From Girardia tigrina (taxonomy: Eukaryota), in contig MQRK01246197.1 of the NCBI GenBank assembly GCA_001938485.1, forward strand, positions 36,150 to 97,487: a DNA stretch of 61,338 nucleotides. The letters run 5' to 3'. Below, piece after piece: positions 6,143 to 61,338 of this stretch. Within the stretch, counting starts at the first letter, position 1. Each line of letters starts with the position of its first letter. Below the pieces are notes generated by a model that was not told where the DNA came from, searched no databases, and worked only from the letters and a program-made list of their open reading frames with translations. The translations under genes and the position numbers were made by a program.

Positions 6143-6994
6143 TGAAAATTTGAAATGATTTAATATTTTTAATGTTTTTAAATATATTATGCTGTACTTT
6201 AAAATGTAAATTATACTCGAATAATTATCTATCGTGAACATCCAAAATATCAATTTTCCACCTGGGTTGGAGAAACACATTTCCAAATACTAAACTCAAC
6301 ATACAAAATTCAACAAACCAATTTCAACATACCAAATTTAAAATATTTCTCACATCCCCCTCGATTTAAATGGCTTTAGCCATTCCACATTTCTNNTCAA
6401 TATTCTGCCATCATCTAATTGTATCTCGTAACTTCTTTCATGTCGTCGGTTCTTTATTGTGGCTGGGCCCATATATCGATCCTCATCCTTCGTTACGTTT
6501 TCTTTCTTTATAAGCACTTTATCTCCAATTTGGAACATTCGTTTCGTCTGTGTCGTGGTTTTATTCATTTCCTTTTCGACATGTCTTTTTCCATCGGTGT
6601 TTTTCAACCAATGTCTTAGTTTTCTACCAAAAATTATTTCTGCTGGAGATATCTCTGTGGTTGCCTGAATTGTGCTATTTAGCATAAACTCTATTTCTGG
6701 CAGGGTTTCCGTCCAATCTTTGTGGACCTCGTCTTTCATCCGTATATTCATGGCATCCCTAATTGTTTCAAATAATTTCAAATGAAAATTTGAAAAGATT
6801 TAATATTTTTAATGTTTTTAAATATCTTATGCTGTACTTTAAAATGTAAATTATACTCGAATAATTATCTATCGTGAACATCCAAAATATCAATTTTCCA
6901 CCTGGGTTGGAGAAACACATTTCCAAATACTAAACTCAACATACAAAATTCAACAAACCAATTTCAACATACCAAATTTAAAATATTCCTCACA
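6143..6994 (-). mobile_element. Internally deleted Ty3/Gypsy element: two near-identical 212-bp LTRs (6143-6354, 6783-6994) around an integrase C-terminus
   Basis: TG...CA direct repeats differ at only a few positions. A polypurine tract (GAGGGGGA on minus) abuts the 3' LTR. There is no PBS and no clear TSD. Confidence 0.9.
6350..6781 (-). pseudogene. Gypsy integrase C-terminal fragment
   Basis: W..LPEIEFMLNST.QATTEISPAE.IFGR ... FQIGDKVL ... RYMGP ... RNVEWLKPF, homologous to the integrase end at 49560-50060. Confidence 0.9.
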
Positions 6995-7009: not shown

Positions 7010-7087
7010 TCCGAATAATGGGTTAGGGTTAGGGGGCGGCAAATCTTAGGACCGCCCCGGGCGCCAATAAGAGTTGCTACGCCACTG
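7010..7087. mobile_element. Terminal remnant of a DNA transposon (TIR CAGTGGCGTAGC)
   Basis: Ends GCTACGCCACTG, preceded by a GC-rich GGGGCGG/CCGCCCC hairpin. Confidence 0.55.
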
Positions 7088-23115: not shown

Positions 23116-23696
23116 TGTTATAAAATATTTATTTATCGTTATGAGGGGTTAATTTAAATTTTGATCTCGCCTGAATAATTTATTATTTTTTAATTTAAAG
23201 GGTAAAATATTTTTATGTTAATATGCTTATTCAATATTTTAAAATTAAAAATTATATAATAAAACAACTATTAAAAAATCAANNNNNNNNNNNNNNNNNN
23301 NNNNNNNNNNNNNNNNNNNNNNNNNNNNNNNNNNNNNNNNNNNNNNNNNNNNNNNNNNNNNNNNNNNNNNNNNNNNNNNNNNNNNNNNNNNNNNNNNNNN
23401 NNNNNNNNNNNNNNNNNNNNNNNNNNNNNNNNNNNNNNNNNNNNNNNNNNNNNNNNNNNNNNNNNNNNNNTTGGGTCGAGATAATTAAATTAACAGGAAA
23501 ATTTGTTTTAAATATGTGAATTGTTATATAAATAAATTTTGGTGTTTAAAAAATGAATCCTGATATTGAGGTTGCAACCACTTCTCACAATCGTATTAAT
23601 CGGACATTTTTTTACAAACCCATCCTCATATTTATTATTATAAAGAGACGAATTTTAAAAATCGTGTTCTTCACCCAATACGAAACAATAACCTAA
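23116..23696 (+). mobile_element. Copy of the TG-headed AT-rich cassette family with a 47-aa ORF (23553-23696)
   Basis: TGTTA start, TTATGAGGGGTTAATTTAAATTTT at 23139, AATTAACAGGAAAATTTGTTTTAAATATGTGAATT at 23488, then MNPDIEVATTSH...RILKIVFF. Confidence 0.65.
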
Positions 23697-24348
23697 AAGT
23701 TAATTGAAATATAAATTTTAATATTTTTTAATAATAATTGTAGTGTATCCACTACTTCAGACACCATAGTGTACATTAATGTACATATTAATGTACATTT
23801 TTTGTGTATGTTATTTGAATGTTGTTGTGATGATAATTTTTGTTGTTCACGTTTCTCTTATCCTTAACCCGTCTCATTCGGAAGCAAATATTCCTGTTGG
23901 TGCTGGTAAAGCAAGATCTAAAATGCCGTTTTGTCACGAAAAAAATTGTGAATTATAATAATCATATTATAATAATAATATAAAAAATCAATAATTATAT
24001 TAAAAATTAATTCTCATCAAATTGCCCAACGATTATAATTTTCGAGAGCGTATACCTGGATTTTACCTCTATTATTCGTCAAAAGGATTTCAAAAAAACG
24101 GAAACAATCCATCAGATCGTCTACAGAACACCGATAACATTCCAGCAAAATAATATCGCGATCTAAGACATATCCGACGTCATTTGACGGTAAATATACG
24201 ATCTCGTGCCAGTGTAAACCCATGAACCCCAGTTGTTCCTTTATTTCCATCACAATCATACTGATCGGTTATTTATTTTGTATCGGACGTTGTGTAAATA
24301 TCATTTAAACATCTGAGTTTTGTTTAGTTTATTTTGTCATTTCTTTAA

Positions 24349-24829: not shown

Positions 24830-27800
24830 TTTTAAAAGATAATATTTTTAGATCATTCGGCAAATTAAAACAAAATATTAGTTGATATATTTAGTAAAAA
24901 TGCAATCTAATTTAAAATTATTAAAATAAATATGGATAATTAAAATGGGTATTCAAATATGTCGTGGGGGGAGGCAACGATGGAAAATAAGTTTGCCTAG
25001 CTCATAGAAACCCAAAATGCAAAAACCATAATCAACAACGAATAAACAAACTTGATTTATCGTCGTCAAATCCATTATATGTAAAGTAAATTAAAATTTT
25101 ACTGACTAAATGTGGCAATGTAATCAATTTCTCATCCTGTATAAATCTTTTAAAATATCTTTTCGCTTTCTCTACTTGTCTCTCTCACTCTCTCTCTTCC
25201 ATTCTCCGTCTCTCTCCCTCTCTCACTCTCTCATTCCTTTCGGAAAAATTATCTCTTAAATTCTTTTCGAATTAAAACAAAATAACATTTAGCCCCCCCT
25301 CATCGTTTTTTTCTCGATTTTTTTCGATCGTATTTTTGTTCGATTGCTTTTAATATTCGTCAGAAAAACACCTGCAAAATCAATAAATGTCGAAACGATA
25401 TTAATCGTTGATCAAAATTATTATCCCGTTTTTTTTATTAATACAAATTACAGATACCGGCGATTATCAAATAATATTTTAATTTTTATGTTTCAATTTA
25501 TATTATAAAACTGTAAATTTCCCGAAATTCAAAGTTATATTTAATAAAAGTAACCTTAAAGTTGACAAACAAAAAAAGAAACAATAATCAATAAATTATT
25601 TAATGAATTTATTAATTTAATTTTTTAAAAAAAATTAGTATTTAAATAATAATAATAATAATTAATTTTATTATTATTATTATTTTATTATCCTTATTTC
25701 CGAAATTTATAATACTATAAAAAGAGATTTCAAGATACCCGTGATTTTGGTGAGCTCACATAAATTTTTGAATTTTAGTATTTAAATTATCTCAAATGAA
25801 TTTTTAAAACATTTGAAAAATTTTAGGGTTGAAAATATTTTAAATTAAAGTTTAAAATGAAATTTTATGAATAAAAACATAAGAAAACTTTGGTTTAGGA
25901 TTTTTATTAAAATAAAGATTTCTTTAAAATAAAAGTTTTATAATTACAAAAATGAAAAAGTTTAGTTTAAGATTTTTTAAAAAAATAATAAAACTAATGT
26001 TGTCAAATTAATTTTGGAAATTCCCAAGAAATAATAAATTAAGTATTCGTATTTATATTTCATTATATTTATCTATAAATGGTTTGTGCAAAAGAAATAT
26101 TGTTCCTCGAAAATGTGTTAAAAAATATGTTACTGTGTTGTATTAATAAAACTTTGGTTTTATGACTTCAACATTTATTTCGAACCTAACAATTATAATT
26201 GGATATTTTTAATGTGTTCAAGAATCGAATGTGAGGATTCAGATGTTGATTTGATTTGGCTGACTTATTTCTAACAGTTACAAATATACATTGGTTATTT
26301 AACTCAATTCTTTGTATTTCTAATCTTCATGAATTTTGAACTAATGAATTTATTTCCGTCTATCTTTTTATTTTATGAAGTGATTTGCATTCCAATATTA
26401 ATAGTAAATTATTTGGCCATTAAATTCTTATACATTTCTATTTTAAATATTTTAATAAAGAGATAAATTGTTGTTAAAAAGGCGTTTGTTTAAACGCGTT
26501 TATTTGAATAGGTCGATGTTAAAGATATCTTTATGGTTTCGACTTGTGTTAATGCTGAAGATTATAATTGTTTTCATTGTGAAAATGCGTCACCTCGCCC
26601 TCAATGGTGTAATTATTTGGATAAAATGATTTATAAGTATCGTAAATTGACAAAAAATGAAATAGCTTTACGTGTGGAAATTAATTGAATGATAGAACAA
26701 TTTCTGTAGATTAAATGAGTTGACTATCAAACCGTGGTCTTGCTCCTTAATATTTTTAGCTGATGAAAAAATGTTCCATAGCGGAATCGATTGTTATAAA
26801 AATAATAATTGAACTTCGTTAAACTGTAAAAATCAATATTACGAAAGTAAAAATCATTCTTTTGATCCTTGACATTTTCACAACACCTTACTCCCCACGG
26901 TATTAATATCGATGTCTTTGAGTACCCACCAAACCCTGCCAATCCTACTTCACTGCAACCGTGTTTCCATGCAAACATTGCGATCAATAGAATTCCAAAT
27001 AACTATTTTTTGCATCCACAGATCAATTATTGCTTTGACAAAATAAAAGAAAGATTGGAGCTTGTACTTCTCAGTGGGCTCAAAAGTGTACTGAACAAAA
27101 ATTACAGACGTTTATGCATTTGATGGTAATGCAAGTTTTTTAATCGAGTTCATGCAAATTTTTTTGAAACACATTAGCATTTGCACTGTGTTAAAGTAAC
27201 GACTCTGATTAGTCAACTAACAACCAAGATTCGCGTTACTTTAACAGAAAGAAAATTGATTAAATGACTAACAAAACTAAGCTAATCAAAAAGATATTTT
27301 TTAATGAGCTTAGTTATNNNNNNNNNNNNNNNNNNNNNNNNNNNNNNNNNNNNNNNNNNNNNNNNNNNNNNNNNNNNNNNNNNNNNNNNNNNNNNNNNNN
27401 NNNNNNNNNNNNNNNNNNNNNNNNNNNNNNNNNNNNNATTTCGAAATGAGATAAGTTCCAGAAAGTAATGTCGAATCCAAAAGTTGTTTTGTAGATTGGT
27501 CTGATAATCACCCAAGAAAAAACGGTGTTACCAGCATTTGACTGTTCTGCTTGAATTTCTTCAGTTATGCGTTTTATATTATTTCTTTTATTGCTTTTTA
27601 TTGATTTTATTATTTTTATAATATAATTATATAATTAAGCTTCTTCTTCTTGGCTTTCTTTTCTTTCTTGACTTTCTTCTTTATCTTTTAAATAATATGG
27701 TCTTCTTATTCTTCTAAATAAACTAATCCAAAAAATAAAATAAAATAATCTACAAATTTCACCAGTAAATGATTGAAAGCATAGCAGAACGCATACATAG

Positions 27801-33745: not shown

Positions 33746-33884
33746 AAAAGAAAGGTGATGACCGATATTGTAATTTTTAACAAAGAATATTGTTGGTAGT
33801 ATTGCAAATTATTTAATTAATCCCGGTTCCGAGGATGAATATACATTCACGACGAAAGAATATATCTAGCAATTAATCAGATAT

Positions 33885-34285
33885 AAATATTCGAGAATTT
33901 CGTTGATGCAAATGAAGCGGAACGGAAAGTCATTATTTCAAAAAGCTGTCTTTTTTATCGACAGAAATTTTGTTGTTGGAGAGCACTAAATAAAATTGAA
34001 AAGAGTTACGTGTCCGAATATTCGTTTATCAAACTCAAAATCTGGTATTGCCCCTGGCAAATCGAGTGCATCAATCAAGCCTTTCAGACCGACAGCATCT
34101 TTGAGAACACGCAAGCCGTCATACTTGTTATCCTGGCACAAGAGAATTACACAGTCGCCTTACACAGTTAAATGCAATCATCAATTTTGCCTGGAATAAG
34201 ACAATAAAATTCGAAGTCTGTATTCAAAACGTAGATTCACTAAATGAAGATCGTAAAATTGGCACCGAGTGGGACGTCATTGTTG
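33885..34285 (+). pseudogene. RRAGC/D: Ras-related GTPase RagC/RagD (Gtr2) intronless pseudogene fragment
   Basis: With frameshifts it reads RISLMQMKRNGKSLFQKAVF..EILLLEST/NKIEKSYVSEYSFIKLKIWYCPWQ...IFENTQAVILVILAQENYTVAL/TQL...FEVCIQNVDSLNEDRKIGTEWD. This is collinear with RagC [20 protein letters not shown]...LESTNKI...SF.NFQIWDFPGQ...VIDAQDDYMEAL...[22 protein letters not shown]. Confidence 0.88.
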
Positions 34286-34329
34286 TTTTTTAAAAGTGGA
34301 CTACGAAAATAAATCTATTTTTCATGTGA

Positions 34330-35974: not shown

Positions 35975-36184
35975 TGCAAACTGTATACTTTAACAGGACA
36001 TTACAGTCACATAAGTATATTATACAAAACTGCAACTGAAACAAATGCAACCTCATTTTTCAAAGAAAAACAATTGTAACCCGAATACTTATTATTTGTA
36101 CTTCGTTTAAAGTAATTTAAATATAATCTTACTTTGAAAAAAGAATTATTTGGAGACAAACTCAAAAATAAAATTTTGTATCAT

Positions 36185-36630
36185 TGTGATTATGAGGGGT
36201 TATTTTAAATTTGCATTAAATAGTTTATTATTTTTTTAATTTGAAAATTCTAAAAAAAAGTAAATTAAAATATAAAGTAAAGATATCATAAAAATTAAAT
36301 ACTTATTTAAAATATGCTTGCAGTCATAACAATTGATATATTTTAATAAAAGTTATGAAATAAGTTTAAATAAATTTTAAAATAGACAATTAACGGATTA
36401 ATATTTTAAGAAATAATTTTTTAATAGTACATTTAAATTAATTAGTTTTTATGTTAAAGTTTTGTAAAAATGCAAGAATTATTTTAAAGTTTAAATTTCG
36501 TAAAATTTCGTAAAAAATGTAAAAATTATTTTAAAGTTTAAAATTTAAAAAATTTCAAATCGAAAAAAAATTAATAGATTAATTTTTGGCGAAATAATTG
36601 AATTAACAAGAAATTTGTTTAAATATTTAT
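36185..36630 (+). mobile_element. Head of the AT-rich cassette family (downstream ORF absent)
   Basis: TTATGAGGGGTTATTTTAAATTTGCATT at 36190 and AATTAACAAGAAATTTGTTTAAATAT at 36601. Alignable with 59195-59680 throughout. Confidence 0.7.
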
Positions 36631-36759
36631 TTATTAAATATTTATTTATATTTAAAAGAATTCCAAAATTTTTTATTATTAGTACACAATAAGTCTAAGC
36701 ATAATTTTAAAACATTATGTCCATTTCGTTCCACACACTTAAGCCTACTAATAGTTCAC

Positions 36760-37730
36760 TCAGAAAACGACTTTTTGAAAAATTCTTAAGGGCCTGCGGA
36801 GAGAAAGTCCTCCACAGTAATCTTCAAACTATCTTTAGTTCTAAACTGGATGCCTCTCGAATATCTTTAGGTGCCTGATGAGGTAAAAATCTCTCAGTCA
36901 AAAATCTGGGTTATACGGCTGATGATCCACAAGCAACAGTCCAGTACCGTCAATTGTGGCCCGAGAAATGCCCACTGTGTGCACTGGTGCGTTATCGTGA
37001 AGAAACTATAGTGGAGTGTTCTTCTGTTTCGTCTTTGTTTGGCGGTTACACACTGTTGGCTTTAGTAGACAGCCTCGATGGTGATGTCTTTGCCTGTGAA
37101 ATCAATGAGAATAAAACCTTTATGATCTCAGAAAATGGAAAGCATCATCGCTCGTCCATGACTTTTTCAAAGTCGTATCTTCAAAGATGGCTTTTCTTCA
37201 GACAGCTTCCACTCTGCTAACTCAAGCTTTGTTTCCGGCCAATACATAGTGAGTGGGGTGTCGTTCTCTATAATTCAATCTGCCAGGAAAGTCTTACTTT
37301 GCTGGTCCCAAAGATTCAAGTTGTTCTGACTGAACAATAAGCTGATTTGCATCATTTCAACAGTGAAGAATTAGGGTATGAATCTGGAGCATATTTCTCT
37401 GATGCCAATGGATTTAAATTTTGGCGGGCTATACCATCACTGATGCTGAGCTTTCTTTGACAACATTTTCATCGTAATTTGAAGCTTTTCTTGACCACCT
37501 TGTCCAATTTTTCATCAACTGAGTCAAACACTTCTTGAGGCCGACATGATTTTCTTGATCAAAAATTGAGGTGAGACCACCTATAAACTATCTGACCCAA
37601 TATTTAACAGTTGTCAGAGATGGAGAGTCATATAGATAAGTGGACTGCAAAAGATCGTATATTTCACTGCACTTCTTCTACTGCAACACAAATAACTTGA
37701 TAACGCTGCGATATTCGACATCGAAAATCA
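36760..37730 (-). pseudogene. Decayed mariner (irritans-like) transposase
   Basis: EYRSVIKLF...EIY..L..TY..DSPSLTTVKYW...F..G.TSIFD at the start, with HDNAPVH and Y.PDF motifs near 36900-37000. Confidence 0.75.
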
Positions 37731-39376
37731 TCGCACTGACGAAAATTCAAAATGTCACAGTAAAAATTTTGTTTCGTTTGATAAAATAAAACAATTACTG
37801 AAATTAAAACCTTTATTAATTTGTTTAATTACACAAAAAAAATTAAAATTGGCCATTACACTTTATTCATCTTAGGTAACGCACTTATTGAACGCACCAC
37901 ATATGTTCGTTTATCTTACGAGTTACCAATAACGATCATGAAAGATATTTCACAGAATGGAAAGACAAGTCAAACAAAATTATGGAGGATTTAATATTTG
38001 ATTTTAGATAAATTTAAGGTAAATTGTATAACATTATATTTTGTATCATCTTGGAAATATATTCCAAATGATCAAAGGTCTGAAATGAAACGGTAGTTTG
38101 AATTTTTATCAAAAATTTCATTTTTTATTTTGGGGATAGATTTTATCTCATAATTAGTAATTAACTTTTAATTACCTTTATTTTTTAGATACACTGCAAA
38201 AATGGTTTCCCCTAATCGTCCGGAGGACATTGACGTACCAAGAGGACCAAGAGGACCATGAAAGCAAAGTCCATTTATAGTTCTTCAAATCCAGTATATA
38301 ACAAAATAATATTGCAAATATATAAATTAAGGATAAATAATTTTTTAAATAATTTTAATAAATAAAATAAATGATGAATATCAAAATCCATCTAGTAAGG
38401 GTAACGTACCTTCATCCGATGACCCTTTTAAGATTTTATATATCATGGTCAATGTTTCTTCAATATAACACTCAGAGATTATAAATAAGATTTCGATTTC
38501 GAGAACTTAAAGAGTTGTTTCATATGTAAGAAGGGTATGACATAGAAAACAATGACTTGAAAGGAAAAGTCAAAACAGTTGTAAGTGACACAAGAACGAT
38601 TATTAGATTCGTTAATGAAGTTACATATTCAATATAGAATGGTCGAATGAAAGGTGATTTGTTTACGTGAATGCTGATATGAAGATTCCTATTCCGACCA
38701 GGCAATAGGGAGTTGATCAAAGAGACTAATTCGAACTTTGTCCCATGTGATACGGAGATATTAACTGTCGTTTATCACAAATGTGATAATGTAATCTTGG
38801 CCATTAAACAAGCAAGTCTTTTGACATATTTTTAAAGTCGTCAAAACGATTCTTATAGTCAATCATTAATTAAAAGTGTTTAATACGAGACTCAGGAAAT
38901 ATATGACACTACTTTTGTTATATCAGCCAGTGGTTATTCCAATCTAATGTATTGTTAATTTTAGTGTATATATAAACCGATTCCGTCGCAATTTTGGATG
39001 ATATGTACGAGGAAAATGTTGTCCTCCGAAGATAAGACTGTAGTGAAAAACGAAAGCCTCACAAAAAATTAAGTATTTTCCATTGGTGAAATTCATTTGC
39101 AACTTAAATAACTCTAAAACTAAATAATATCTAAGACTAAACTTAATAGAAAATGACAAGTTATAATTTCCTGTTCTCTATTTTTATATAAAAGAATAAA
39201 ATCTCTTGAGAACGTAATAATAAAGCAAACGACTGACTTCATTTAACCCTTTAGACCTAAAATATTTTTTTATAACTTATTCCTATTATTAAGAAGGATT
39301 TTATTGTATTATTCATAAAAATATTTTAAAAATGACGATAAACTATTTTTAAAAGTCAAAAAACGCTCGTCATAAT

Positions 39377-42819: not shown

Positions 42820-43799
42820 TAAATAAATATTCTAAATTCAATTTTAGTCCAAAGATGTGTGAGACCTAGAATTATCCTGTGGAAAATGATACTTTTACGA
42901 TTGACCGATTCTGATCGCTTTTCCTTGATTACTGCATTCAATTTGTCCTGCTGCCAACAGTAGACCTGTGAATTAATGATTGGGTTCCTTGGAAGAAGAT
43001 CAAAGTACACCGGACCTTTCCAATCCTACTAAATAGACAACAAAATCTTCTATTGATAGATATTTGCCTTTAAAGTGGTTTTCGATAACTCATTAAACGT
43101 GCACCATGATCATTTTCGATTGATATTGTTGTACACAATCCACTTTTCGTATCCAGTGATAATTCTTTTTAAAGAAGAATCAAATTCGTTGCCGTTAAGC
43201 AGTGAATCACAAGCGTTGATGCGATTTGCCATATGAACTTCTTTCAAATTATACGAACCAAAATATCCAGCTTCTTAACAAGACCGACACTTTATAAATG
43301 CTACTCAATGGATGTATGTAAAACATTTAACTTATCTGCAATTCCCCATGTAGTTAAGCGACAATCCGCTTCGACGATGGTTTGATTTCATCCTCATTAA
43401 GCTTAACTGGTTGACCTGAACTTTGGTCATCTTTAACAAAAATCTCCCCAACGGAATTTTTTAAACCATTTTCGACATTGCCTTTCTTTTAGGCCTTCTT
43501 TACCTTAAACATCACGTTAGTTTTTGGCAGCTTGCACTGCGTTTTTTCCTTTACGGAGATAATAAAGCAAAATATGGCGTAAATGTTCATTTTTGTAATT
43601 TATATTAACTTTTGATTATTATATTAATTATTGAAATCCTTAAAACACTTAAAGAAAATATCTACGCAACGTATTCGTAAAGGTAAGTGAGGATGACTAC
43701 TAATATATATAAGAAGTTCCTAACATTTACGGATATCATAAAAATTGGAATGATAGAAATCTATAACTGAAATCGGCAATTACTTAGTTGACAACTCAA
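42820..43799 (-). mobile_element. Mariner pseudogene (3' truncated) with 5' TIR
   Basis: TIR TTGAGTTGTCAACTAAGTAATTGCCGATTT after TA. Motifs ITGYEKWIVY.N, GPVYFDLL.N..INS.VYC and NRK.IIFH. Confidence 0.88.
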
Positions 43800-45704
43800 T
43801 ATTTATATGTAAAGGTATACGTTATTGAATACATGAAGATTAAATCACAAATATACGTGTTTCGAGGAATTCTTATTCTCATCATCGGGTAATTCTATGT
43901 TTAACGAGAAAAAACTTGGGAAGGTTAAAATTTAGAAGATAACATGAATTGCGAGATATTATAATTATATAAATATATTTATTATAAAAAAAATATATAG
44001 AAAATATAAAACAATTATTGATTAATTGATAAATAAATTGGTAACGGGATTTAACAATAAATAACCCATGGATAAATATGGCAACTAAATTCTTTGGATT
44101 ATTTACCAATCTTGGTTGGACAGAAACTCATTGTCAGGTTACCAAAACTGAAGAATCAAGCAATTTATAACCATCAAAAGAAAAAATTCCTCCAACATAC
44201 GAGTGATTATACCAACAATTGATTTAGTGATCGAATTCCGTCCGACTGACTTCTTGGTTAACAATATTTACTTAATCGATATTGAAACTACAGGGCGTTG
44301 CTCATTCTGTGATCATAAGATTTACGTTAGTTAAATATAGTTATATTTGTCACAGTAAATCTTCCTCCAATTTCCTCCTACCTCCTTTTTAGTGATATCA
44401 CTAAAGTTAAACCTTCATTGTTCTCCTTCCATTTTGTAATTAGTTGATAATATAATATTAGTCTTTAAACTATATTTGGTTGTTCATTGTCTTACATATA
44501 TAAGAGGTTTTACAAAACCCATTAACGTTTTGTAAGGCTACTAAAACCTTTTCTTCTAAGCGATTAATTATTGTTTGATTGTTGATGTTAATTGTTATAA
44601 ATTATCAACATACGTCTCCGTTACCGTATAAAGTAAGGAGCCATAGAGCAAATAATAATTTATATTTTCGCCAGTAGTTGATCTGAAAGTACAATTAATC
44701 AAAATAGATTTACTAAATTATAAAAATATTATATACTTTTAATTATTTTATTATTATTAGAACAAAGAACATTTTATGAGAAATAAATAATTTTTAATTT
44801 TAATATAAACTAGACTATTTCTAACAAATATAATTATAAAATTAATTAATTAATTAATTAAACAAAAATAAACAATTGCAATTGAATTCTAACAGAAAAA
44901 AAACATTCAATCAAATAGAAATTTAATAAAAATATAATAAAGAAAAAATAATCATTATTAAATTAACTGTCAAATAAAAAAATATTTTTAAACAAAAAAA
45001 TATAATAATTAAAAATTATTGCTATTATTATCATTAATATTGTTCTTATTTTATTAAATATTATTACTAAAATATATAATTAGATAATTAAGGAAAATTA
45101 AAAAAAATAAAAATAAAAAATAAATAAAATCACAATCATCAAGCAAAATAATTGGGAAATTGACTGGTAATTATTTTTTTATAAACATTATTTTCTATGA
45201 AAGATTTTGTGAACTGCAATTGTCTTTATTTAATTAGTAATTAAATTAAATTAACCTGGAGAAATTTAATATTCATATGATAATATTAATAATATTATTA
45301 TTGCTTAATTAGGTCTTGTTATATCATACAAGTGAAGAATGCTCTGTTTATTCAAGGGCAATTGCGCATGAAATCGACAAACGAGCCTCTATCGAGCTGG
45401 TCTATCCTTGTCCGTCCATATATAGCTAGCCTAGCTAGGTTGAGCAGAGGCAGCATATCGGCTTTCAAAGTTATAAGGAAGTTGCATTTTACATTCGATA
45501 GCAATATATCCTTTAGAACTGATTAATATTTGTCTGTAAAAGTGACTTATTCAGTCTTAAATGATGTTCAACTTATTTTCCATTATAGAAATGTTCAATG
45601 AAATTTTATAATGTAAAAGTCTCCCCTAATTTCATTAAGGAGAAAAAGATTGAAATTAATGAAATTATAATTGATTTAAACAAAAAAAACATTAAAAAGA
45701 ACAA

Positions 45705-46832: not shown

Positions 46833-49800
46833 TGTTAGGATAAGAGAATCATATATTTATATTCATATCCATATCTATATTTATACCATAAAGGATCGTA
46901 AATATTATTACAAATGCTCCTGAAATATCAATAGAAATTTGGAACAACATGGAATAATAAAGAGATGTTCGTCACCGTGTTACACATCAATGGTTTTTGT
47001 TTGGAGGAAGAGAAAGAAAGAAATTCGGTTATGTCTAGATTTTAGACTGTTAAATCAAGTTACTGAGAGGCAAGCATTCCCAATGTCAAATATCGAAGAG
47101 ATGTTGGATGCTTTGAAAGGTACAAAGTGGTTCAGTTCGGTTGATTTAGGCAACGCTTACTATCAGGTAGGGTTGGAGGAGAATTCGAAACTGAAAACCG
47201 CATTTTCATACAAGACGGGCCAGTTTTGTTTTACGCGAATGCCGTTTGGCATAGCGGCCGCTCCAGCAACATTTCAGGAGTTGATGACTGCTGTTTTGAG
47301 AAATATGTTGTGGACGGAGGCATTAGTTTACTTGGAGGACATCATCATTTTTTTCAGAAACAGAAATCCAACATCTGGAGAGACTGGATAAATATTTCTC
47401 AAGGATTCAAGCAGTAGAACAAAGCAGTAGAACATTGTGAACAAAGGCGGTATTAAGACAAACCCAGAAAAGATCAGAGCGATTCACGATTTTGAGCGAC
47501 CTAAATGCGTAAAGAAATTACGGATTTTCTTGGGAATATGCAACTACTACATAAAGTTCATTCAACAGTATTCGAAATTATCCAAACCTTTGGAGGATAT
47601 GTGCGGTAGCAGGAAAATCACGCTGTATTGGTCCGAATCACACACGGAGGCGTTTGAAAAACTGAAGAAATCCCTAATTTTGACCCCGGTGTTATGTTAT
47701 CCCGATTTCAAATGAAAATTTATATTAGACACGGATGCATCATTTGATACTATTTGGGCTGTTTTGTCACAAAGAAATGATAGAGGGGAAGAGAAGGTGG
47801 TTGCATATGGGTCAATGCCGATGTCAAAACACGAAGTTGGTTACTATATCACTCGGAAAGAATTATATTCGATTTTCCACTTTACACAACTTTTCCAACA
47901 TTACCTATATGGTGCAAGTTTTAAGCTGAGGACCGATCACAAAGTGATATAATTCATGATGACCACGAAGAAATCCATAACACCACAATTCCAGAACTGG
48001 ATGAACTATTTGAGTAACCTCGATATGATGTTAGAATATTGGAAAGGCATATTGCATCAAAACGCTGATGCGCTCTCAAGAAAGGATTGTCAAACATGTG
48101 AACAATGCTTCCTTCAGCATGAACAAGCGAAATTGAGCAAGAAAATAACGAGAATGTTAACGCTGGATACATATTGTTGCGGATTTTGTTTTTTTTAACC
48201 GACGTGCTATTCCCGTCTGTATGTTTGCATGTGTGCACCGTTTGTTTTTTTGGTATGTAGCGTTTTTATGATTTTTTTTATTTTCGTGTGTATTTATTAT
48301 TTATTTTTTTTATTGTGTGATTTTTTCTTATTCTTTTTTTACAATTGCAGTCCCGCTTTCAAAATATTAATATTAATATATATCGAGAAATAATATTGCC
48401 TATGGCAATATAAAATAATTCAAAAGTGATCAATAATATTGATCACAAATTCAATAAAAATTTCAAATAGAATTCCAATCTAATATTTCGAGAGGCAGTG
48501 GTTGTCTTTTCCCAAACTCGCATCCACAACAATTGCTGATTGGAAAATTAATTTTGCCGCATCCGATTACTGTCGGTGAATTGATTAGTTTCACTTCGAC
48601 CCATTCGGATACGGGGACATTTCGTTGATAAAATCGAAAATCTTCGAAGAAACGGTCTATCGCTTAGGTTGGACAGAAAATTCCTCTCCATCATTATCGA
48701 AAAGACATTTCGTTGATAAAGTAACTATCATTTTTTTCTCTGTAAATAATATCATGATATTTATTCTTTTCTTGCGTTTCGTATCTCTTTGTGATATAGT
48801 GATTCCTTTCGCAACTTTAGATCTCTTTCTGTTTTGTTTGAATAATTATAGTTTTAATCATCTAAATTTTCTTCTTATTTATTGTACTAAATACGAGATT
48901 GCGTAGACGAGTTAGTGACGATCTTTGACTCATTAGCTCGTTTCCGTAATACATATGTTTCACCAAACCCGTGGCAATAAGACAAAGAGGAAATTATGAA
49001 TATATTGTAATCAATAAACGACGGAAAGGCGATGGAATTGAAAGTAGTTAATGGATGTTTAATGACGTCTACTAAAAAAAATCTGGATCCCAAAACAGTC
49101 TTGGAAGAATCGCATTCTTTTCTTTCATAAATTCATATGCTATACTGAAGTACATAACACATATTTGTCCATGAATAAGGAATATGATATGGACGATTTG
49201 CCAAGGAGGTGGAATCAGTAGTACAAGGCTGCCCGACATGTCAAATATCTAAACCATATACCGGAAAAACGAAAGAAAAAACATACGAATTGATGTAACC
49301 ACGTCCGTTAGATTACATTTGTATGGATTTTTGTGGACCACTTCCAGCGGTGAATGGAAATAAGTATATATTGGGAATCGTTGACAGATTAAGTAGATAT
49401 ATTAGTTTGATGGCCGTGAATAATCAAGATGAAGAAACGGTGATAAAAACATTTCATCACAAGTGGATTTATAAATTCCAGAGCTCCAGCAAATATCCAC
49501 GTTGACAGAAGAAAAGTTTTTGAGTTCCACAGATTTGAAAAATACGCGAAATCAATGCTGATGACAATCCATTTTTCAAGTCCATATCATTTTAGCGCAA
49601 ATGGAATAATAGAACGACAGTTTCGGACCATCCGGAATGCTCTTAATGCTACATGGAAGGAAAAAGGAGGTTCAAACTAGGTTGACATCCTCCCAGAATT
49701 GGAGTTCAGTTTGAACGCTTCCAGGCAAAGTACTATTTGAGTTAACCCAGCAGAAGTGATATTTTGGAAGCATATCACATTAGATGGTTCTCGCCACTAT

Positions 49801-50252
49801 GAACTGGATAATAAAAAAATTATAGTAGATATTAAACAAAAGAACTATCTTAAAAGCAAACCAAGGAGTTAAAACGAGAAGAGAGTTTTGGGAAGGTGAT
49901 GTAGTACTGGTAAAGAGGGAAAATAGACCAAAAGGATAAGACAGATATGAAGGACCATATAAAATCATTCGGAAAATACATGATCGGTGCGTAGAAATGA
50001 AAAATAAGACAGGGTGTGTAATAACGAGGAATATCGAATGGCTAAAGCATTTTAAAGAAGGGGGGTGTTAGCATAAGAGAATCATATATTTATATTCATG
50101 TCTATATTTATACACATAAAGGATCGTAAATATTATTACAAAGGCTCCTGAAATATCAATGGAAATATTGGGACGTTATTTTAATATTCAATTATTTTGG
50201 TGTCAGATTTAAATAAATAAATTAATTCTTGTTATGACTGAGTCGACTTACA
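46833..50252 (+). mobile_element. Ty3/Gypsy LTR retrotransposon lacking gag/protease (truncated 5' LTR 46833-46938; RT-RNaseH-integrase pseudogene; PPT; 3' LTR 50066-50252)
   Basis: RLCLDFR.LN, DL..AYYQ, MPFG, YLEDII, DTDAS, RTDH, ADALSR, MDFCGP, ANGIIER. PPT AAAGAAGGGGGG, then a TGTTAG repeat of the 5' LTR ending TTACA. Confidence 0.93.
48175..48951. mobile_element. Solo LTR (777 bp) inserted into the Gypsy pol
   Basis: 5-bp TSD CATAT on both sides, termini TGTTGCGGA...TCCGTAATA. The pol frame rejoins as LTLDT|YVSPNPWQ. Confidence 0.85.
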
Positions 50253-51060: not shown

Positions 51061-53094
51061 ATATATAATTTATATTAATAGCAGGAAATGGAAAATCTGT
51101 AACGACTTGAATAGGAATCTTTTCCAAAATTATTTAAAAATTAAGAATTTTCATTTTCAGTTTGTAAATGTTCTGTTAAGTGATAAAAATCTTTCATTAA
51201 AAAAAGTATTAAATATTTTTTTTAATTAATTTTGATGATAATCGGGAACAACCTATTGTCGTACCATCGGTATTCATCACATTCCTTGGGAGGGTCTGCA
51301 CCCAACAATTTATAAAGTTATTACTGTTTCAAAGTTTAAGGGTACAATAAGCTCACTTTACATATGAAGGTTAATAAATAATATTAATAATGATGGAATG
51401 ATAATTGTACTTATCTTAAATTTCTCCAATTTAGAATATTTTATATTATCGAAATTCTCTATTTTGATACTTTATTACTACTAAGAACTCATGGTAATGT
51501 ATCAAGTGTTCCGTGTTCTACCATGATGTGAATGCTTAAATAAAGCGTAGTTTTATCTGCGCATAACGTACACATTGACTGGAAGATGTGGTCTTATGAT
51601 GGAACCGTAGAACGGACTCAGTTTACATCGAAAGTTTCGAAACCCACTTGTTTGCAGCCAGTACTGCAAACTATAAAAATATAATTGGAGAAACTGAGTT
51701 TATAAAGGTCGAAAGTTGGATTACAGATAATTTTTTCTGTCATAAAGAGGACAAATTATGGAGACGATTTTATAATTGGCGTTGATGCGATGTAAAGGAA
51801 GGTCAACCGGAATGCGACCGCGGAATGACAGTCGAAGGTATTTTTCTGTCATTCCTTCATACGATTAAGCGCGTTTTATAAACATTTCTTTTCTAACTAT
51901 GATAATATTAAATATGAAATCTTTTTATCATTGTTGGTAATCAGTAACTATCGGTGTATAATACTCGTATTGTATATACGAATTATCTATTATTGATTAT
52001 AAATAAAAAATCGATTATTATTATTATTATTCATTGAATGTCGGAGTATTTAAAGCGAATATGTTGCGTAATTAATCCAGTGTATGACGCATAATCACAG
52101 TAAAGTCAGAGTCTCTTCTTCACTTGATCCGACCCCTTGACGACAACAAAAAAGACAATAAATCTTAATCTTTACAATGTGATACATTCTTTAAAAAAAG
52201 AATAATAAAAAATTTGTTGTAATTTACAAGAAAAATTATAATAAAAAAACTTTTTTTTAATAATTTTAATAAAATTTAATAATTAAAATAAAATAATCTT
52301 TTCGGATTTCATTATTTTCTTCTTATATTACTTTACAATTTCTTTGAAATTCTTTTGATAGAACCAAATGCCTTTGGAGAACAACAAAAATAAACGAACA
52401 TTTGAGGAAAGAATAAAATATGTTTGTATAAATTGCTTTTATAAGTACTAATTACTCGAATTAATACAGGAAATCTTCTTTAATTAAAGGGGTTGATCGT
52501 TTGTATTGAAGTTAGATGAAGCCGCTCTTACTTGATAAGGTTTATCGTGATGGAGATTTGGATTCCTCTTGAAAAAATTAATCAATGTCTTCGGAGAAGT
52601 CTACAAATATAATCTCTCTTGTTTAGAAAACTTTCCTTAGATATTTGTATGAAAATAGAATAATAAAATGACAAATTTTTTTTCAAAAGAATTTGTTTAA
52701 GAGGCAAATTTTCTTCTAAGTACTCCCGGAATATTTGAGTTATTTTAAATTTAATTACCGGGTTTTGATTCGCAAAGATCCTTTTTAATATCCTTGAATG
52801 TCTTGAAAAGAAACTAGACTCAACGAACATTAAATAAATTTAATAATAAACTTTATTATTTTATACATTTTTATACAGATATCAGAGGTATCGTTATAGT
52901 GATAAATTTGAACTAAAAATCTTTTTGGTGTTTTTATAAAACTATTTAAGGGGTTTTTATTATAAATTTTCAGTAAATGTTGTTATAAATTTTGTAAAAT
53001 AACTTGGAGCATTTTAAGTAAATGAGCGAACGATTTTACTATAGCGTCTATTACAAATAACAATTTGACGATATAACAAATCCCCGTATCTTAA

Positions 53095-54099: not shown

Positions 54100-55754
54100 A
54101 AAGTGCCTCATCAATTCCCAACCAATAGGCCTAGAATTATCTTGGTGAAAAATGACACTTTTACGATTGACTGATTCTGGTCGCTTTTTCTTGACCGTAG
54201 TTTGTCCAGTTGCCGACAGTAGACCAGTGAATTAATGTTTGGGTTCCTTGGAAGAAGATCAAAGTACACCGGACCTTTCCAATCCTATCAAATAGACAAA
54301 AAAATCTTCTATTGATGGATATTTGCGTTTAAAGTAGTTTTCGATAGCTCATTAAACGTGCACCATGATCGTTTTCGACTGATGTTGTTGTACACAATCC
54401 ATTTTTTGTCTCCCGTGATGATTCGTTTTAAAAAGGATCGAATTCATTGCGTTTAAACTATGAATTGCAAGCGTTGATGCGGTTTGTCAGATGAACTTCT
54501 TGCAAATCATACGGAACCCAAATATCCAGCTTCTTAACAAGACCGACACTTTTCTAATGCTACTAAATGGATATATGTGAAAGATTTAACTTCTCTGCAA
54601 TCTCCCATGTCTGCTTCGACTATGATTTTGATTTCATCCTCATTAAGTTCAACTAGTTGACCTGAAAGTTGGTCATCTTTAAGAGAAATATCTCCACAAC
54701 GGAATTTTTTAGACCGATTTCGACATTGCCTTTCCTTAAGCTAGGTTAGGATAATAGTAAACATATTTGAGTAGAACTTCATAAATATGAGGAGGTATTT
54801 AATTTAGTTCGCTGATCAAAATTTAAGTGGTTTTAAAAATTATTTTGAACTGAAATCAAATTGAAAATTTTAAAAATTAAGTAGAATGATAATAAAATAT
54901 TTTAACTTTGAATTTAAAAATATTCTTTATAAATTAATTTGATTTAAAATATTAGTTTAGTAAAAAAAATAAATGGATTAAAAACAGATAACAGATAAAA
55001 CAGTATTTTTAAAAACAATAATTTTATTAGAATTTTATTAAAATCTGTAAAATTTTTAAATATATTAAGGATATGGATAAAAAGTTAAATATTTAAAACA
55101 TAAAAATATTGAATATTAAATATACATAAATTAATAAATTTCTTAAAAACAGTAGCCGCTGATTTATTTGAATCTTTGGGGATTCGTAAAAGGTTCAAAT
55201 AACTCAATTACTCAAATAACTCAATTATAAAAATTATGTCATAATTTTAGAAATGCCATTTAGTCATTTGGAAAAATAATGAAACACTATTTTTACTAAA
55301 CTTTACTTCAAAACAAAGCCATGATCATGCAATTTTGTTTGTTTGGAAGCATTTTCTTTTTCAACATGATTAATTTTCTTAATTTTATTCAAGGATTGAA
55401 ATTTAAAAATTATACTATTTTCTTCAAATAACTGAAAGTTTTTATAACTCAGCGTTCAAAAAACTCAATGAGTACTGTATTTTATAAAAATTTTAAAATT
55501 AAAAATTATTTTGATTTGGTTTAAAATAAATTTAAAATTATTGGAAAATATAGGTCGGTGGATTCATTACAAATTTAGGAAACAGTTTAAAATTTTGTTT
55601 GAATAATTGTTATTAATAAATATATAAATTGAGCTAAAATGATTTCTGATATTGACGTTACAAATATTTCTCACAATAATATTTACGGATATTATAAAAA
55701 GAAAGTGAGATACATCTATAACTGAAATCTGCCATTAATTAGTTGCCAACCAAA
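54100..55754 (-). mobile_element. Second copy of the 42820-43799 mariner family, interrupted by a ~900-bp AT-rich insert (54741-55650)
   Basis: 54130-54738 aligns with 42860-43490, and 55670-55754 aligns with 43720-43799 including the TIR. Confidence 0.85.
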
Positions 55755-56624
55755 TACCAATTTTCTATCTGGATATTTCCAAATTCCAAATACAAAATTT
55801 TAATTATTCCTCAGCTGCACATTCATATATTTATATTCTGAGACCTGACATGGTCACTAATGATTACCAAGTTACGTATCATGTTACATCTTCCTTACAG
55901 TAATCAAATAATAAAAAAATATCGCATTAAAATTCTCTAAATTAAAATATTTTTCTTTGTTATTTCACTTATTTTTCAGAGAAATCTCTTTTTTATCAGT
56001 TTCTTTTTTTACAATCATAAATTATTTATATTTTGGTAAAGATTTTGTAGGATAAAGAAACAATTTTCCAAAAGCCTATTTGTATTTAAATTAAAATCCA
56101 AAAAATGGTTGTAAATATTTAGAATTAAATCTTACTAAAAAACATCAAAACTTTTTAGAATTAAAGTAATACTGAAAAAGCAAATTGATGTTCATTTTCA
56201 CGGAAGAAATTGAAACAAAACACTTCTTCAGATGGTATTAAAAATATTTTATGATTTTATTAATTGAAAAAAAAGAAAAATATTAAAAATTAAAAAAAAA
56301 TAAATTATCAAATTCCATATTATTATATTTAATTTATATCGAATAAAAAAATGAATAAATTCAGTTAAAATTAAACGATAAATAATAATAAATTTTGCTA
56401 TTTTTATAAACATTTTTCAAAAATAATTTTAAAAGAATAAATTGAAAAAATTATGGAAAATTTTTTTATTTTCTAATATCTTCCAAAAAATAACTGTAAA
56501 TAAAACGAATATAAATATTAATATTTTTTTCAGAAAAAAATGGTAAAATATTTTTTTTATAAAAAGGAAATCAATTTTTGAACATATGGACATATTATTA
56601 CTGTTGTGTCGCAGAAAACTCCAA

Positions 56625-57020
56625 CGAAATAACTGAATTAACAAGAAATTTGTTTAAATATGTGAATTATTGTCAAAAATAAAAAATTTGGTGCTGAATT
56701 ATGAGTATTGATCTGATAATAATGAAAGTGGCATAAACGCTACTACCAACTCTCATGAAACTTCTTTGGTTCATAAGCAAATTATCGAATATGAAAAACT
56801 TCAATTATGGGAAGAAACAATTAAAAATAAGATAATGAGAAATTTATTATAAAAAGTACTATGATATAAAGTTATTCTAAAGCGAGTGCTGGAAGGAATT
56901 ATATTTTGGCTGGAAAATGTTCATCTTTTTTGGGGAGATTCAAATAAAATTAGTGAGCAATCTAATTAAAAGCTTTTTTGGGAATAATAAAATTTATAAA
57001 TAAACAGAATATAATGTTAT
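56625..57020 (+). mobile_element. 5'-truncated copy of the AT-rich cassette family with decayed ORF from ATG 56701
   Basis: GAATTAACAAGAAATTTGTTTAAATATGTGAATT, then GAATTATGAGT...CTGATAATAATGAAAGTGGCATAAACGCT shared with 59706-59752. The sequence diverges after that. Confidence 0.7.
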
Positions 57021-57295: not shown

Positions 57296-57681
57296 ATTTC
57301 TTATTTTATTTGAATTTGTTTGCCACTTTGTTTAGTAAAACAAAAACATTAATTTTTGTTTATTCATTTAATTTGTTGAATTTTTTATTAAATGGTGTTC
57401 ATTCAAAATGATTTTTTTTGAACACCACAAACACAAAACCAACAAAATAGTAAGGAATATTTTCGAATGGTGTTAAATATATGTTGTGTTTGATATGTTG
57501 CTTTTAGGTTTGTGTTTCTCCCACCCAAATAATATTTTGAATGTTTTAAATTTTCGGATATACGGACAGTTTTAAAATGTAAATAGCAACTTTAAAATAA
57601 AATAAATATACTTTAATCATTAAATATAGAATAACATTTTAATCAAAATACTTAAATGAAAGTAATTTAAAATATTTTGTT

Positions 57682-59144
57682 GTTTTTGTTTTGCAAATAA
57701 ATATTGCTGTAACCGCCTTGCGTTTTGCTTTCTTACAAGCTTTCGGCGGNNNNNNNNNNNNNNNNNNNNNNNNNNNNNNNNNNNNNNNNNNNNNNNNNNN
57801 NNNNNNNNNNNNNNNNNNNNNNNNNNNNNNNNNNNNNNNNNNNNNNNNNNNNNNNNNNNNCGGAGGGGATTTGTATGATCCGAAGGGCCAGCGCAATGGT
57901 TGTCAGGAACAACAGGACAATCTGCGAGGAGCTCGAGGTGGTCGAGGAATCGATTCTCAGAGAAAATCTCGAGTGCTATTCGTACTAGTGGCCGAGAGCG
58001 TGAAAGGAGGGCCGTTAATGGCGCTCATGTTCGGCCTGCTGGGACTAGGGTGACAATTGTGCATAGTGAAAGCGCCCGGGATTGGTGACAACGACAGGGA
58101 GAATTGTGTTCGGGCGATCAAAATTTGGGTCGCAGGGACGTGTGGGCGATCGAGAAACCGTTCACTAGGATTTTTGATGGGATCGAGTTGACGATAAAGT
58201 TCTCGATTGTGAACGGCGTTAAATCTGGCTATCAATTTCGGGTGCATATCAGGCGAATAAGTTCACCGAACGAACCGCTGATTAATCGTTGGGTAAAACC
58301 GAAGCCCTAACCTTCAGAGAGAGCTGAAGGACGCAGAGAAGATGAAAAGTAAAAGGTTGCAGACTTTGTTAAAAGAGCAGTTATGATGGACAGTAAATCG
58401 GAGGCGGTGCAGAATTTGATCATGCTGGCCGAGGACGTGCATGAAAGAGCTGTAGGTGCTATTTTTGAGCCGACTGGGACTGCGTCTGTGCGCGATGGGA
58501 ACGCTCAGGTTTTGTGTCGGTTGGAAAACCGCAGTCTTGTGAGGGCTTTGCTGTGTCCAGCCTCAGTTTTGAGAGAGATCCGGGGTCAGAGGGTCTGTAG
58601 CGATGAGTGCACATGGGGCAATGTGCGGTGGTGTGTTAACATTGTCTGTGGCGTCCGGGCAGACCTTGCGAAGTGGTCATCGATAGTTTCATGACCGGGG
58701 TCGATGGACCGGCGGGAGGCTACGCAGGACAAAGGCTGTGATCGAATCGAGATTTTTCACTCGAGTTGCTTGTCAGTTAAATGGCGAGTGCAGTGGGCTT
58801 GAGAGTAGTACCCCACCGTTGTGGGATGCGAATTTGGACGATTTAGAGGCGATTCTCGATGACGATGCCAATGATGGAACCGGTGGTTGAGTGTGTGAGC
58901 TAGTAGTGGATTTATCAGAGGGAGCTACCAGGATTCTGATGCGACCAATGAGAAGAGACGATGTGGAAAATGGATCAATTTGATTTTATGGCCAAGTTAA
59001 AATTCGAGAGCGGGTTGTGTGACTTGATGGTAGTGGGACGTGTAGAGGTGTTAATCTCGTTTGTTTGAATCGGTGATTCGTCAATGTAGTTTTTGTTTTT
59101 CAAATAAATATTGCTGTAACCGCCTTGCGTTTTTCTTTCTTTCA
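57682..59144 (+). mobile_element. GC-rich unclassified element bounded by ~55-bp direct repeats, carrying a decayed ~300-codon orphan frame
   Basis: CAAATAAATATTGCTGTAACCGCCTTGCGTTTT...CA at 57682-57737 and 59089-59144. ORFs 57900, 58104 and 58383 are all in one frame. Confidence 0.6.
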
Positions 59145-59160
59145 TAATTTTATAGTGGAT

Positions 59161-60424
59161 TGTAACGTAAAGTATTATTTAATTATATATAAGGTTATGA
59201 GGTCTTAATTTAAATTTGCATTTCGCCGAAGTAATTTATTATTTTTTTTTAATTTGAAAGTTTAAAAAAAAGTAAATATATAAAAAAAGTTAAAATTAAA
59301 ATAAAGAAAAACATGAAACCTAAATACTTATTTAAAAAATAAAACATACGTTTATTCTAATATGGTTCTTTTAAAATTAAAACAATTAGTTTTAGGATAA
59401 AATTTTGTAAAAAATTTTAAATTTAATGAAAAAATTATTTTATTAATTTAAAGATTTAAAATTTATTAATATGGTTATTAAATATTTTAAAATTAAAATA
59501 ATTAGTTTTGAGATAAAATTTTGAAATAATTTTAATTTTAGTGTAAAAATTATTTTATTAATTTAACGTTTTAAAATTTATTAAATTTTAAAAAATGGAA
59601 TCAAAAGAAAAATTTAATAGATTAATTTTCGGAGAAAAAACAATTAAATTAACAAGAAATTTGTTTAAGTATGTGAATTATTATGATTAAAAAATTTTTA
59701 GTGTTGAATTATGAGTGTTAAAACTGATAATAATGAAAGTGGCATAAACGCTTCTTACAAAGGTATTTAAAATGAATTAAAATATTTTTGCAAATAATTT
59801 TTAAATATTCTTATTGAGGAATAGTTTTTTCAATTTTAGAATTAAAATTAATCAATCAAGAACGATGTCTAACTACGAATGTTCTGTGGATAATATTTCT
59901 AGAGGCAATTTGAGTTGTAATATCCACTGTAAAAGTTATTTTAACAGAATTGGAAGTCAAATTATAGCTCTTAAAAAGTTGTTCAGATGTTTTTTAATCA
60001 ACAAGTTCTCTAAGTTAATTCATAACTATTCGTTGAAAACTCATATCAGAAAACTTTGTTTCGGAAATTTTGAACGCCAGACTTTTCAATAAACACATCA
60101 GATGCAAATTTTTGTTTTGAGATATGATCATATTAAAGATAAGAAAGTGGAAATTCTACAAAAATTCTTCTCTTTCTGTCGTCAATCGAAACTTGAAAAT
60201 GATTATCAGAAATTATTCTCGAAACAATTTCGAGTAGTAAGCTCAACTTCAGCAATTGTATTGGAAGATCGTTTTGATCATAAAAAAGCATATACCAAGT
60301 ATTATGAATATTAATAGACAGAATATTTTTAATTGTTTATTTTCAATAAAATGATCCGTAATTAATGACTGCAACATGACTTTAAAATTCTGGGATTTTT
60401 CAACTATTTGCCAAAATTTCACAG
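59161..60424 (+). mobile_element. Most complete copy of the TG-headed AT-rich cassette family; orphan frame 59865-60314 with one internal stop; cut by piggyBac
   Basis: TGTAAC start, head motif at 59195, second motif at 59647, ATG at 59711, putative GT-AG intron 59763-59839. ORFs 59814-60092 and 60102-60314 are in the same frame. Confidence 0.7.
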
Positions 60425-60428
60425 TTAA

Positions 60429-61122
60429 CCACTTCTGTGATTTGCCCGAATCCAGTTCGGGTAGGTATTTTGCTGACACAGTGATTTGCCCGAACTGGAT
60501 TCGGTCAAATCATACACGAAACTTTTTATAGTGATTTGCCGAAATCCAGCTCGGGTCATTCCCCCACCAACACATCGCGCGCGTTTAGTGACACATGTCG
60601 TAACTTGATCTTTCAAGAACAATTAGTCACCGGCTGCTCATCGCCCAGTTAGTTTGTGTGCTGTATTATCGTGTCGTGTGTATTCAAACTTTCGTAATTA
60701 CGTATTACGTATATTTACGTAATTTTTATTTATTTATTTTATTTTAGTTCTTGCCCAGAATGGCAGATTACGAAAGTGACGAGGAAGTATTGATAAGTGA
60801 ATCGGAAGATGAGGAATTTTCGGAATCTGACGATGATAGTGATCTTGACGACTCAGAAGATGATGATGTCGTTATGTCTAATGAATTTATAGAAATAAAT
60901 GTAGAAAATCCGCCAGCACAACCTCCGAAGTTTCCTTATTTCAAGACTGCTGGTATAAATTTACAGTTTGATGATAACGCATCAATCTTAAAATACTTCG
61001 AGTATTTTTGGGACAAGGAAATTATGGATATAATTACAACTGAGACAAACAGATATGCAGATCAATTTTACCATGGCGCGATTCTCAAGAAATTTTCTCG
61101 TTTGAAAAAATGGAAGTATTGA
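60429..61122 (+). mobile_element. piggyBac 5' end with transposase N-terminus (PGBD4-like), interrupted at about 61120
   Basis: TTAA then CC, three subterminal GTGATTTGCC repeats, acidic N-terminus and F..FWD.EIMD.I..ETNRYA.Q. Confidence 0.9.
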
Positions 61123-61123
61123 T

Positions 61124-61338
61124 CTTGTGACATTTAAATGTTCAATTGGGTGTGTTCAGCTATTCTAGTGCGGAGATGACGATTTGTTTGTCCAATGTAC
61201 AAGGATTCACACTTGTGACATTTAAATGTCACAAGTGTGAATCCTTGTACATTGGAGAAACAAATCGTCATCTCCGCACTAGAATAGCTGAACACACCCA
61301 ATTGAGTAGGAATAGCTCGATTCTAGATCACATTAAAA
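61124..61338 (+). mobile_element. Penelope-like insertion with inverted 5' duplication (164-bp palindrome 61142-61305)
   Basis: Plus frame FKCHKCESLYIGETNRHLRTRIAEH (GIY-YIG). The arms are identical except for one mismatch. Confidence 0.9.

Follow-up and report, generated by a model that had tools for sequence, protein, structure and literature searches.

A family of AT-rich interspersed repeats in Girardia tigrina that may be Gypsy-type LTR remnants

The 61,338-nt stretch of Girardia tigrina DNA analyzed here (the window) contains a family of interspersed repeats, with solid copies at four sites, c23 (23.1 kb), c36 (36.2 kb), c56 (56.6 kb) and c59 (59.2 kb). The copies are homologous, share an end just past an ATG, carry an integrase-type end motif in three cases, and have unrelated flanks. 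On balance, we favor the view that this is an old interspersed repeat of ~480 bp, AT-rich and non-coding, whose behavior is that of Gypsy-type LTR remnants. The same modest confidence covers the limit of the claim, which is that the repeat works like an LTR remnant; membership as a solo LTR is not asserted, and the copies are not filed as such because target-site duplications, a primer site, a purine tract and pol in the vicinity were looked for and not found. The repeat is real but ordinary, most likely old and transposon-derived. Repeat-rich animal genomes commonly hold such decayed, LTR-like repeats, and the present family would be a further entry in the species repeat library.

Copies of the repeat and their anatomy

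The initial annotation had defined the family by two recurring head motifs. Motif 1 did recur, at 23139, 36190 and 59195, with ≤3 mismatches (two at 59195) against 0.01 occurrences expected from 100 shuffles. For motif 2, recurrence held for the first 26 nt at 36601, 56636 and 59647 (0.00 expected), but the copy at 23488 was alignable only with gaps. Leave-one-out profiles recovered all three held-out heads (E 1e-9 to 3e-6) and three of the four held-out tails (E 3e-11 to 1e-8), and a profile built solely from c59 and c36 detected c56 (E 2e-19) as well as the two halves of c23 (E 5e-7 and 2e-5). With profiles of the copies, c23, c36, c56 and c59 scored far higher than any of 50 shuffled windows. 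Identity between c36 and c59 was 69% over 506 columns; because the copies are only 69–85% identical, an assembly artefact was ruled out.

A fifth tail, c55 (55551–55675), absent from the initial list, matched c23 (blastn E 1e-6; none of 300 shuffles was as good) and was not recovered by a profile of the other three tails (E 2.3). Because it has a pairwise match to c23 but none to the three-copy profile, c55 is graded as a probable member of the family, linked via c23 only. The variants that had been placed at 54786, 4680 (minus strand) and 11420 (minus strand) did not hold up: in every pairing, 10 or more of 300 shuffles did as well, and the profiles missed the latter two and gave the first an E of 26 at best. 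One of the four N-terminal peptides quoted as related stems from the unsupported 11.4-kb locus. The supposed copy at 4699 (minus strand) does start TGTAAGAA, an LTR-type start, and could be an LTR remnant that is separate or only very distantly related. All five copies have one orientation (chance, 1 in 16), and three of the five fall within 4.3 kb. A tandem array over 54.7–60.4 kb was considered and discarded, the DNA upstream of c54 and c56 being unalignable with the cores of c59 and c36 (38–148 of 200 shuffles).

No Rfam family matched across the window. Three motif strings searched in the full texts of papers returned no paper; supplements and Repbase/Dfam, the usual home of consensus sequences, lay outside that search. 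That the family is undescribed is therefore not established, and it may already bear a library name. The two family motifs had no match in bacterial and archaeal genomes, and the c59 finding had none among plasmids; these nulls, and those from phage collections, say little because the collections are of the wrong kingdom.

The order of the unit is motif 1, AT-rich DNA with copy-specific tandem duplications, motif 2 and an ATG, and shared sequence ends ~37–49 nt past the ATG. The most complete copy, c59 (59161–59759; copies are given here without a strand), has 599 bp at 14.5% GC and TGTAA...TTACA ends, the left one tentative. Its plus strand holds motif 1 at 59195–59217, where homology alignable between copies begins, an internal tandem duplication at 59369–59584 (period 115, 1.9 copies), motif 2 at 59647–59679, and an ATG frame of 19 codons at 59711–59770 with no coding constraint shown. 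The LTR-type terminus of c59 lies at 59752–59759 on the minus strand, and shared sequence stops there or within ~8 nt. The copy c23 (23116–23589) spans 474 bp including a 188-N gap and has TGTTA...TCACA ends; c36 (36177–36688) is firm over 36188–36626, with both ends tentative and a 47-bp tandem duplication; and c56 (56609–56748) is a tail only, 85% identical to c59, with a degenerate end motif. Counted from a TGT 13–34 nt before motif 1, c59, c23 and c36 are 599, 474 and 512 bp long. Subtracting the tandem duplications gives 484, 474 and 465 bp (the c23 gap being estimated and the c36 end tentative), so that the repeat is about 480 bp, at 14–20% GC.

The alignable block begins only at motif 1 and thus excludes the TG 'head' with which the unit was said to begin. 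TGT is present 13, 23 and 34 nt ahead of motif 1 in the three heads; this stretch is unalignable and such sites are common, a TGT(A/T)A 20–35 nt upstream being found at 6.3% of AT-rich positions. The left ends gave no alignment between copies. Reading motif 1 as a piggyBac end (GGG then TTAA) was rejected, as the homology is on the wrong side and c59 does not have this arrangement.

The terminus past the ATG

The ATG-side end is fixed as TGT(A/G)AGAA on the minus strand in three of the five copies, the minus-strand starts being TGTAAGAA in c59 and TGTGAGAA in c23 and c55; c56 and c36 have no end motif. There are nine occurrences of TGT(A/G)AGAA on both strands of the window, three of them the right ends of c23, c55 and c59, which count as one event because the copies are homologous. 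A further occurrence opens a Gypsy LTR, ahead of which lie an integrase C-terminus and a purine tract. This reference element, not a member of the family, lies at 6142–6994 (minus strand) and consists of two 213-bp LTRs, 99% identical, around the integrase C-terminus, with the purine tract before the LTR starting at 6354. The minus-strand end of the c55 tail, TGTGAGAAATATTT, equals the first 14 nt of that LTR (14/14 terminal bases alike). The repeat and the 213-bp LTR bodies gave no alignment (32–211 of 300 shuffles). With a common end motif but unalignable bodies, the two are taken as separate families whose integrase ends are of one kind. Nothing beyond the end motif was alignable between the repeat and either of the two known LTR families of the window, whose LTRs are ~190 and 213 bp; the repeat is longer and more AT-rich.

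The ends of c59 and c23 fit the att patterns TGTNANR...CGTNACA and TGTTRNR/YNYAACA, which an excerpt of PMC3601003 tabulates for animal Metaviridae. Judged by the same excerpt, the repeat resembles Gypsy/Ty3 (Metaviridae) solo LTRs in its TG...CA att-type ends, its length of a few hundred bases, its non-coding character and its unrelated flanks, and differs from them in having no target-site duplication, no linked internal region and an unalignable left end. The earlier description of the unit as LTR-like was therefore apt for the ends, but the firmest terminus lies just after the ATG, where it had gone unseen. Looking for a 3′ boundary gave a common CA end but no target-site duplication in any of four units at the chosen ends (best 2/4, 2/5 and 3/6); for comparison, neither Gypsy element of the window exceeds 3/5. 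Likeness continues past the CA for ~8 nt in c23/c59, into a shared GTATT, for ~7 nt in c23/c56 and for ~18 nt in c23/c55. No primer-binding site or purine tract was seen beside any copy, the 15 Gypsy pol proteins map to three sites in the window, none <4 kb from any copy, and the window contains no paired copies flanking gag-pol with a primer site and purine tract. The unalignable left ends, the degenerate ends of c56 and c36, the 7–18 nt of likeness past the CA and the single strand all weigh against interpreting the copies as LTR remnants.

The LTR probably starts at the TGT(G/A)AGAA end, on the minus strand and opposite to the proposed ORFs, as the end motif and, weakly, AATAAA suggest. On the minus strand AATAAA lies 18–80 nt from the end in all three long copies, and on the plus strand in one of three, the hexamer being frequent at such composition. 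Were the LTR plus-oriented, an ATG inside its end would give the same shared starts reading into unrelated flanks. In yeast Ty1, the gag start is inside the 5′ LTR. As in Ty1, an ATG placed ~40 nt short of the LTR end would let every solo LTR read a common N-terminus into unrelated flank; unlike in Ty1, there is no coding constraint here, and the end motif favors the opposite orientation.

The same ends could belong to a decayed element with Ginger-like TGT...ACA termini, either a non-autonomous DNA transposon or an unclassified interspersed repeat, served by a transposase elsewhere and bearing no cargo; we consider this unlikely. Ginger elements have TGTNR termini and 40–270-bp terminal inverted repeats, according to an excerpt of PMC2836005 that shows TGTNR to be common to Ginger and Gypsy. 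Both chosen ends of c59 and c23 share these termini with Ginger1/Ginger2 (Tdd), nearby pol, primer site and purine tract are all missing, and DNA transposons dominate the window. However, in place of long terminal inverted repeats there is an exact inverted match of only 3–5 nt, with 12–15 of the first 30 nt alike, and neither a CCGG or RTATAY-type duplication nor, unlike in Ginger1/Ginger2, any 4-bp duplication or transposase was found.

ATG frames and flanking DNA

An ATG at a similar distance past motif 2 had been listed as a feature of the unit. Such an ATG is no distinguishing mark, as 40% of AT-rich positions have one 45–85 nt downstream, and c36, which passes into mariner DNA, lacks an ATG of the family type. 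The ATG frames comprise 19 codons in c59, 11 in c56, 47 in c23 and 28 in c55; c59 and c56 are separated by a 1-nt indel at codon 4, which is concealed in the quoted 'MSI-SD...' peptide, whose ATG frame is the one of 11 codons. Identity between c59 and c56 is 42/49 after the ATG versus 55/65 before it, the codon changes between c23 and c55 are six nonsynonymous and none synonymous, and other frames outscored the ATG frame in all three of the pairs c23/c55, c59/c56 and c23/c59. No coding constraint is apparent from these results. In c23/c56, the ATG frame leads by one point, 21 to 20. The N-termini thus are related as translated DNA but not as constrained proteins. A general caution follows: the end of an AT-rich repeat, when translated, yields 'related N-termini with variable tails'.

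That the downstream sequences differ was borne out by 60 flank tests (10 pairs × 3 lengths × 2 scorings), the best of which was equaled by 15 of 200 shuffles, and by 30 further tests (best 6 of 100). Beyond the CA end, nothing is shared in 0.6–1.2 kb of flank, and hence there is no enclosing far terminus. A likeness between the c56 and c59 flanks noticed by eye fell to chance (28–60 of 100 shuffles). As first reported, neither the unit nor the flanks of c23, c56 and c59 had a transposase, RT or capsid match, and in the c56 and c23 flanks the longest stop-free run was within chance (54 and 118 of 1000 shuffles).

Mariner DNA occupies two of the five flanks, those of c36 and c55. To the right of c36 is a mariner transposase remnant (approximately 36700–37760, minus strand; PF01359 E 5e-4 and PF17906 E 4.6e-4, both below cutoff). 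At c55, the left half of a mariner (54127–54740, minus strand; 84% identical to 42862–43492) is interrupted by a segment that ends in c55, and the mariner 5′ end comes right after (55677–55756, minus strand; 82% identical to 43721–43801). By comparison with the uninterrupted copy at 42862–43801, the mariner resumes at 55677, two bases past the end of c55. As read from the alignment, this junction is an independent marker of the repeat boundary that depends on c55; it is not a clean insertion, because 228 bp of mariner are missing. The start of the segment inside the mariner, 54744–54766, has a 10-nt match to the LTR start at 46833 (3 of 300 shuffles) and also resembles, weakly, the missing mariner piece.

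Outside the repeat, the right flank of c59 holds a frame of 169 codons with one internal stop (59805–60314, plus strand) that exceeds chance (0 of 1000 shuffles); its longest stop-free run is 95 codons (13 of 1000). None of five homologue candidates, confined to the 85–273 aa range, was upheld, its first 95 residues had no hit among 1.84 billion representatives, Pfam and PHROGs gave no family, and NCBIfam gave noise only (E 0.05, far below cutoff). Exact look-up of window ORFs succeeded for none of 10, no solved structure matched two flank frames, and a 90-aa minus-strand ORF beside c56 had no usable atlas hit. From its sequence, the 169-codon frame appears to be an unexplained remnant without a found homologue. 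The right edge of the region is set by a separate piggyBac-like remnant that begins TTAA (60427–61122, plus strand; PF13843 E 0.0032, below cutoff).

The succession of c59, a GT...AG stretch, the 169-codon frame and an AATAAA ~30 nt past its stop would suit a host gene. The repeat would then be the promoter and short first exon of a decayed, locally duplicated host gene family, with GTATT as splice donor and an intron or later insertion behind it, an explanation that we find rather unlikely. It draws on the GTATT of c23 and c59 being in one codon phase, on ATG-to-end lengths only 12 nt apart, on the above-chance length of the c59 flank frame (0 of 1000 shuffles), on the copies all sharing one strand with three within 4.3 kb, and on a post hoc hand alignment of c23 and c56 in which four codons have third-position differences. 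Yet 85% identity upstream with nothing common downstream is the reverse of a gene family, the ATG frame has no excess conservation by the counts given above, none of three acceptors picked by eye would join the c59 ATG to the long frame in phase, and the boundary bears an LTR-type motif.

A further explanation is very unlikely in our estimation: an LTR-like element with a promoter, start codon and splice donor at its end would have activated neighboring DNA, and the 169-codon frame would have been born or recruited in this way. What speaks for it is the GTATT that c23 and c59 have in the same phase, together with the unexplained frame. If genome-wide data bore this out, an element supplying orphan frames with a promoter, a start and a splice donor would be a testable route to new genes.

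Hardly credible is the initial annotation's mobile cassette, in which a conserved promoter head would precede small orphan genes that are carried or shuffled: one flank does have an orphan frame that looks real and runs in the sense direction, and decayed coding-like pieces, such as an intronless RagC-like remnant, occur in the window, but the frames lie outside the repeat and within no shared far terminus, the ATG frames have 11–47 codons and N-termini in which no constraint was seen, and of the five flanks two are mariner and two more are without an above-chance frame. Because the repeat ends just past the ATG, the 'cargo genes' would be the DNA that each copy happened to land beside.

Proposed history and the surrounding window

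If the copies are LTR remnants, an LTR retrotransposon would have inserted by means of its integrase and lost its internal region via LTR–LTR recombination or deletion; the LTRs left behind would have decayed, with duplication of short stretches inside them, and mariner and piggyBac elements would have cut into them later. The 'related N-termini' would then be the last 12–16 codons' worth of repeat DNA in one frame, and the 'variable ORFs' would be insertion sites.

A link to the giant Burro elements had been suggested, and none was found. In excerpts of PMC6431247 and PMC8532177, Burro has an internal region of up to 25 kb and a total length >30 kb, with MATH, BIR, ankyrin and BCL2 inside. 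The repeat shares with Burro/GYPSM1 Gypsy-type ends and an AT-rich, animal-type repeat landscape; unlike Burro, it is a unit of ~0.5 kb whose frames lie outside it. No MATH, BIR, ankyrin or BCL2 domain or giant polyprotein was present in 150 proteins (149 of the 155 stop-free frames of 62+ codons, plus one read-through) or in 48 read-through frames.

The window has 29% GC and nine N gaps. Pfam identified decayed hAT, mariner/Tc1, piggyBac and Gypsy transposons, with Gypsy pol at 6353–6772, 46924–48186 and 48963–50068, a repeat landscape that looks animal-type. This density of decayed transposons was counted in favor of LTR remnants. In the Gypsy element at 6142–6994, the two LTRs are just 427 bp apart and there is no primer site; 95% identical integrases are on record, and the arrangement may reflect an internal deletion or an assembly collapse.

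Between c56 and c59 lies a 1467-bp insert of 49% GC (57678–59144), bounded by 60-bp direct repeats that are 93% identical and run TG...CA, with a flank duplication of 4/5. One repeat end reads TGTAAGAA on the minus strand, and the frames are broken. There was no credible Pfam, PHROGs or phage match to the insert and no usable atlas hit for its 113-aa frame; it could be a short-LTR element. Abutting its 60-bp repeat, at 57450–57677, is a diverged LTR related to the 6142/6782 family (0 of 300 shuffles for 57450–57562).

An intronless, frameshifted RagC/D-like remnant at 33830–34300 (plus strand; PF04670 E 2e-7, RagC structures E 4e-7) is probably a processed pseudogene, and the fragment upstream of it is presumably LINE-like. 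Coding-looking decayed frames with no Pfam match are present at 24017–24259 (minus strand), 26500–27000 and 52400–52860 (minus strand). A Tc1-like element at 19668–20471 has inverted repeats of ~246 bp, and its frame has suffered an internal deletion. At 61142–61305, a perfect palindrome with 82-bp arms and no spacer lies within an endonuclease-like frame, which we take to be of Penelope type; related pieces are found at 28.7, 39.4–39.8 and 46.2–46.5 kb. Two TTAGGG units adjoin an LTR flank at 7020–7034.
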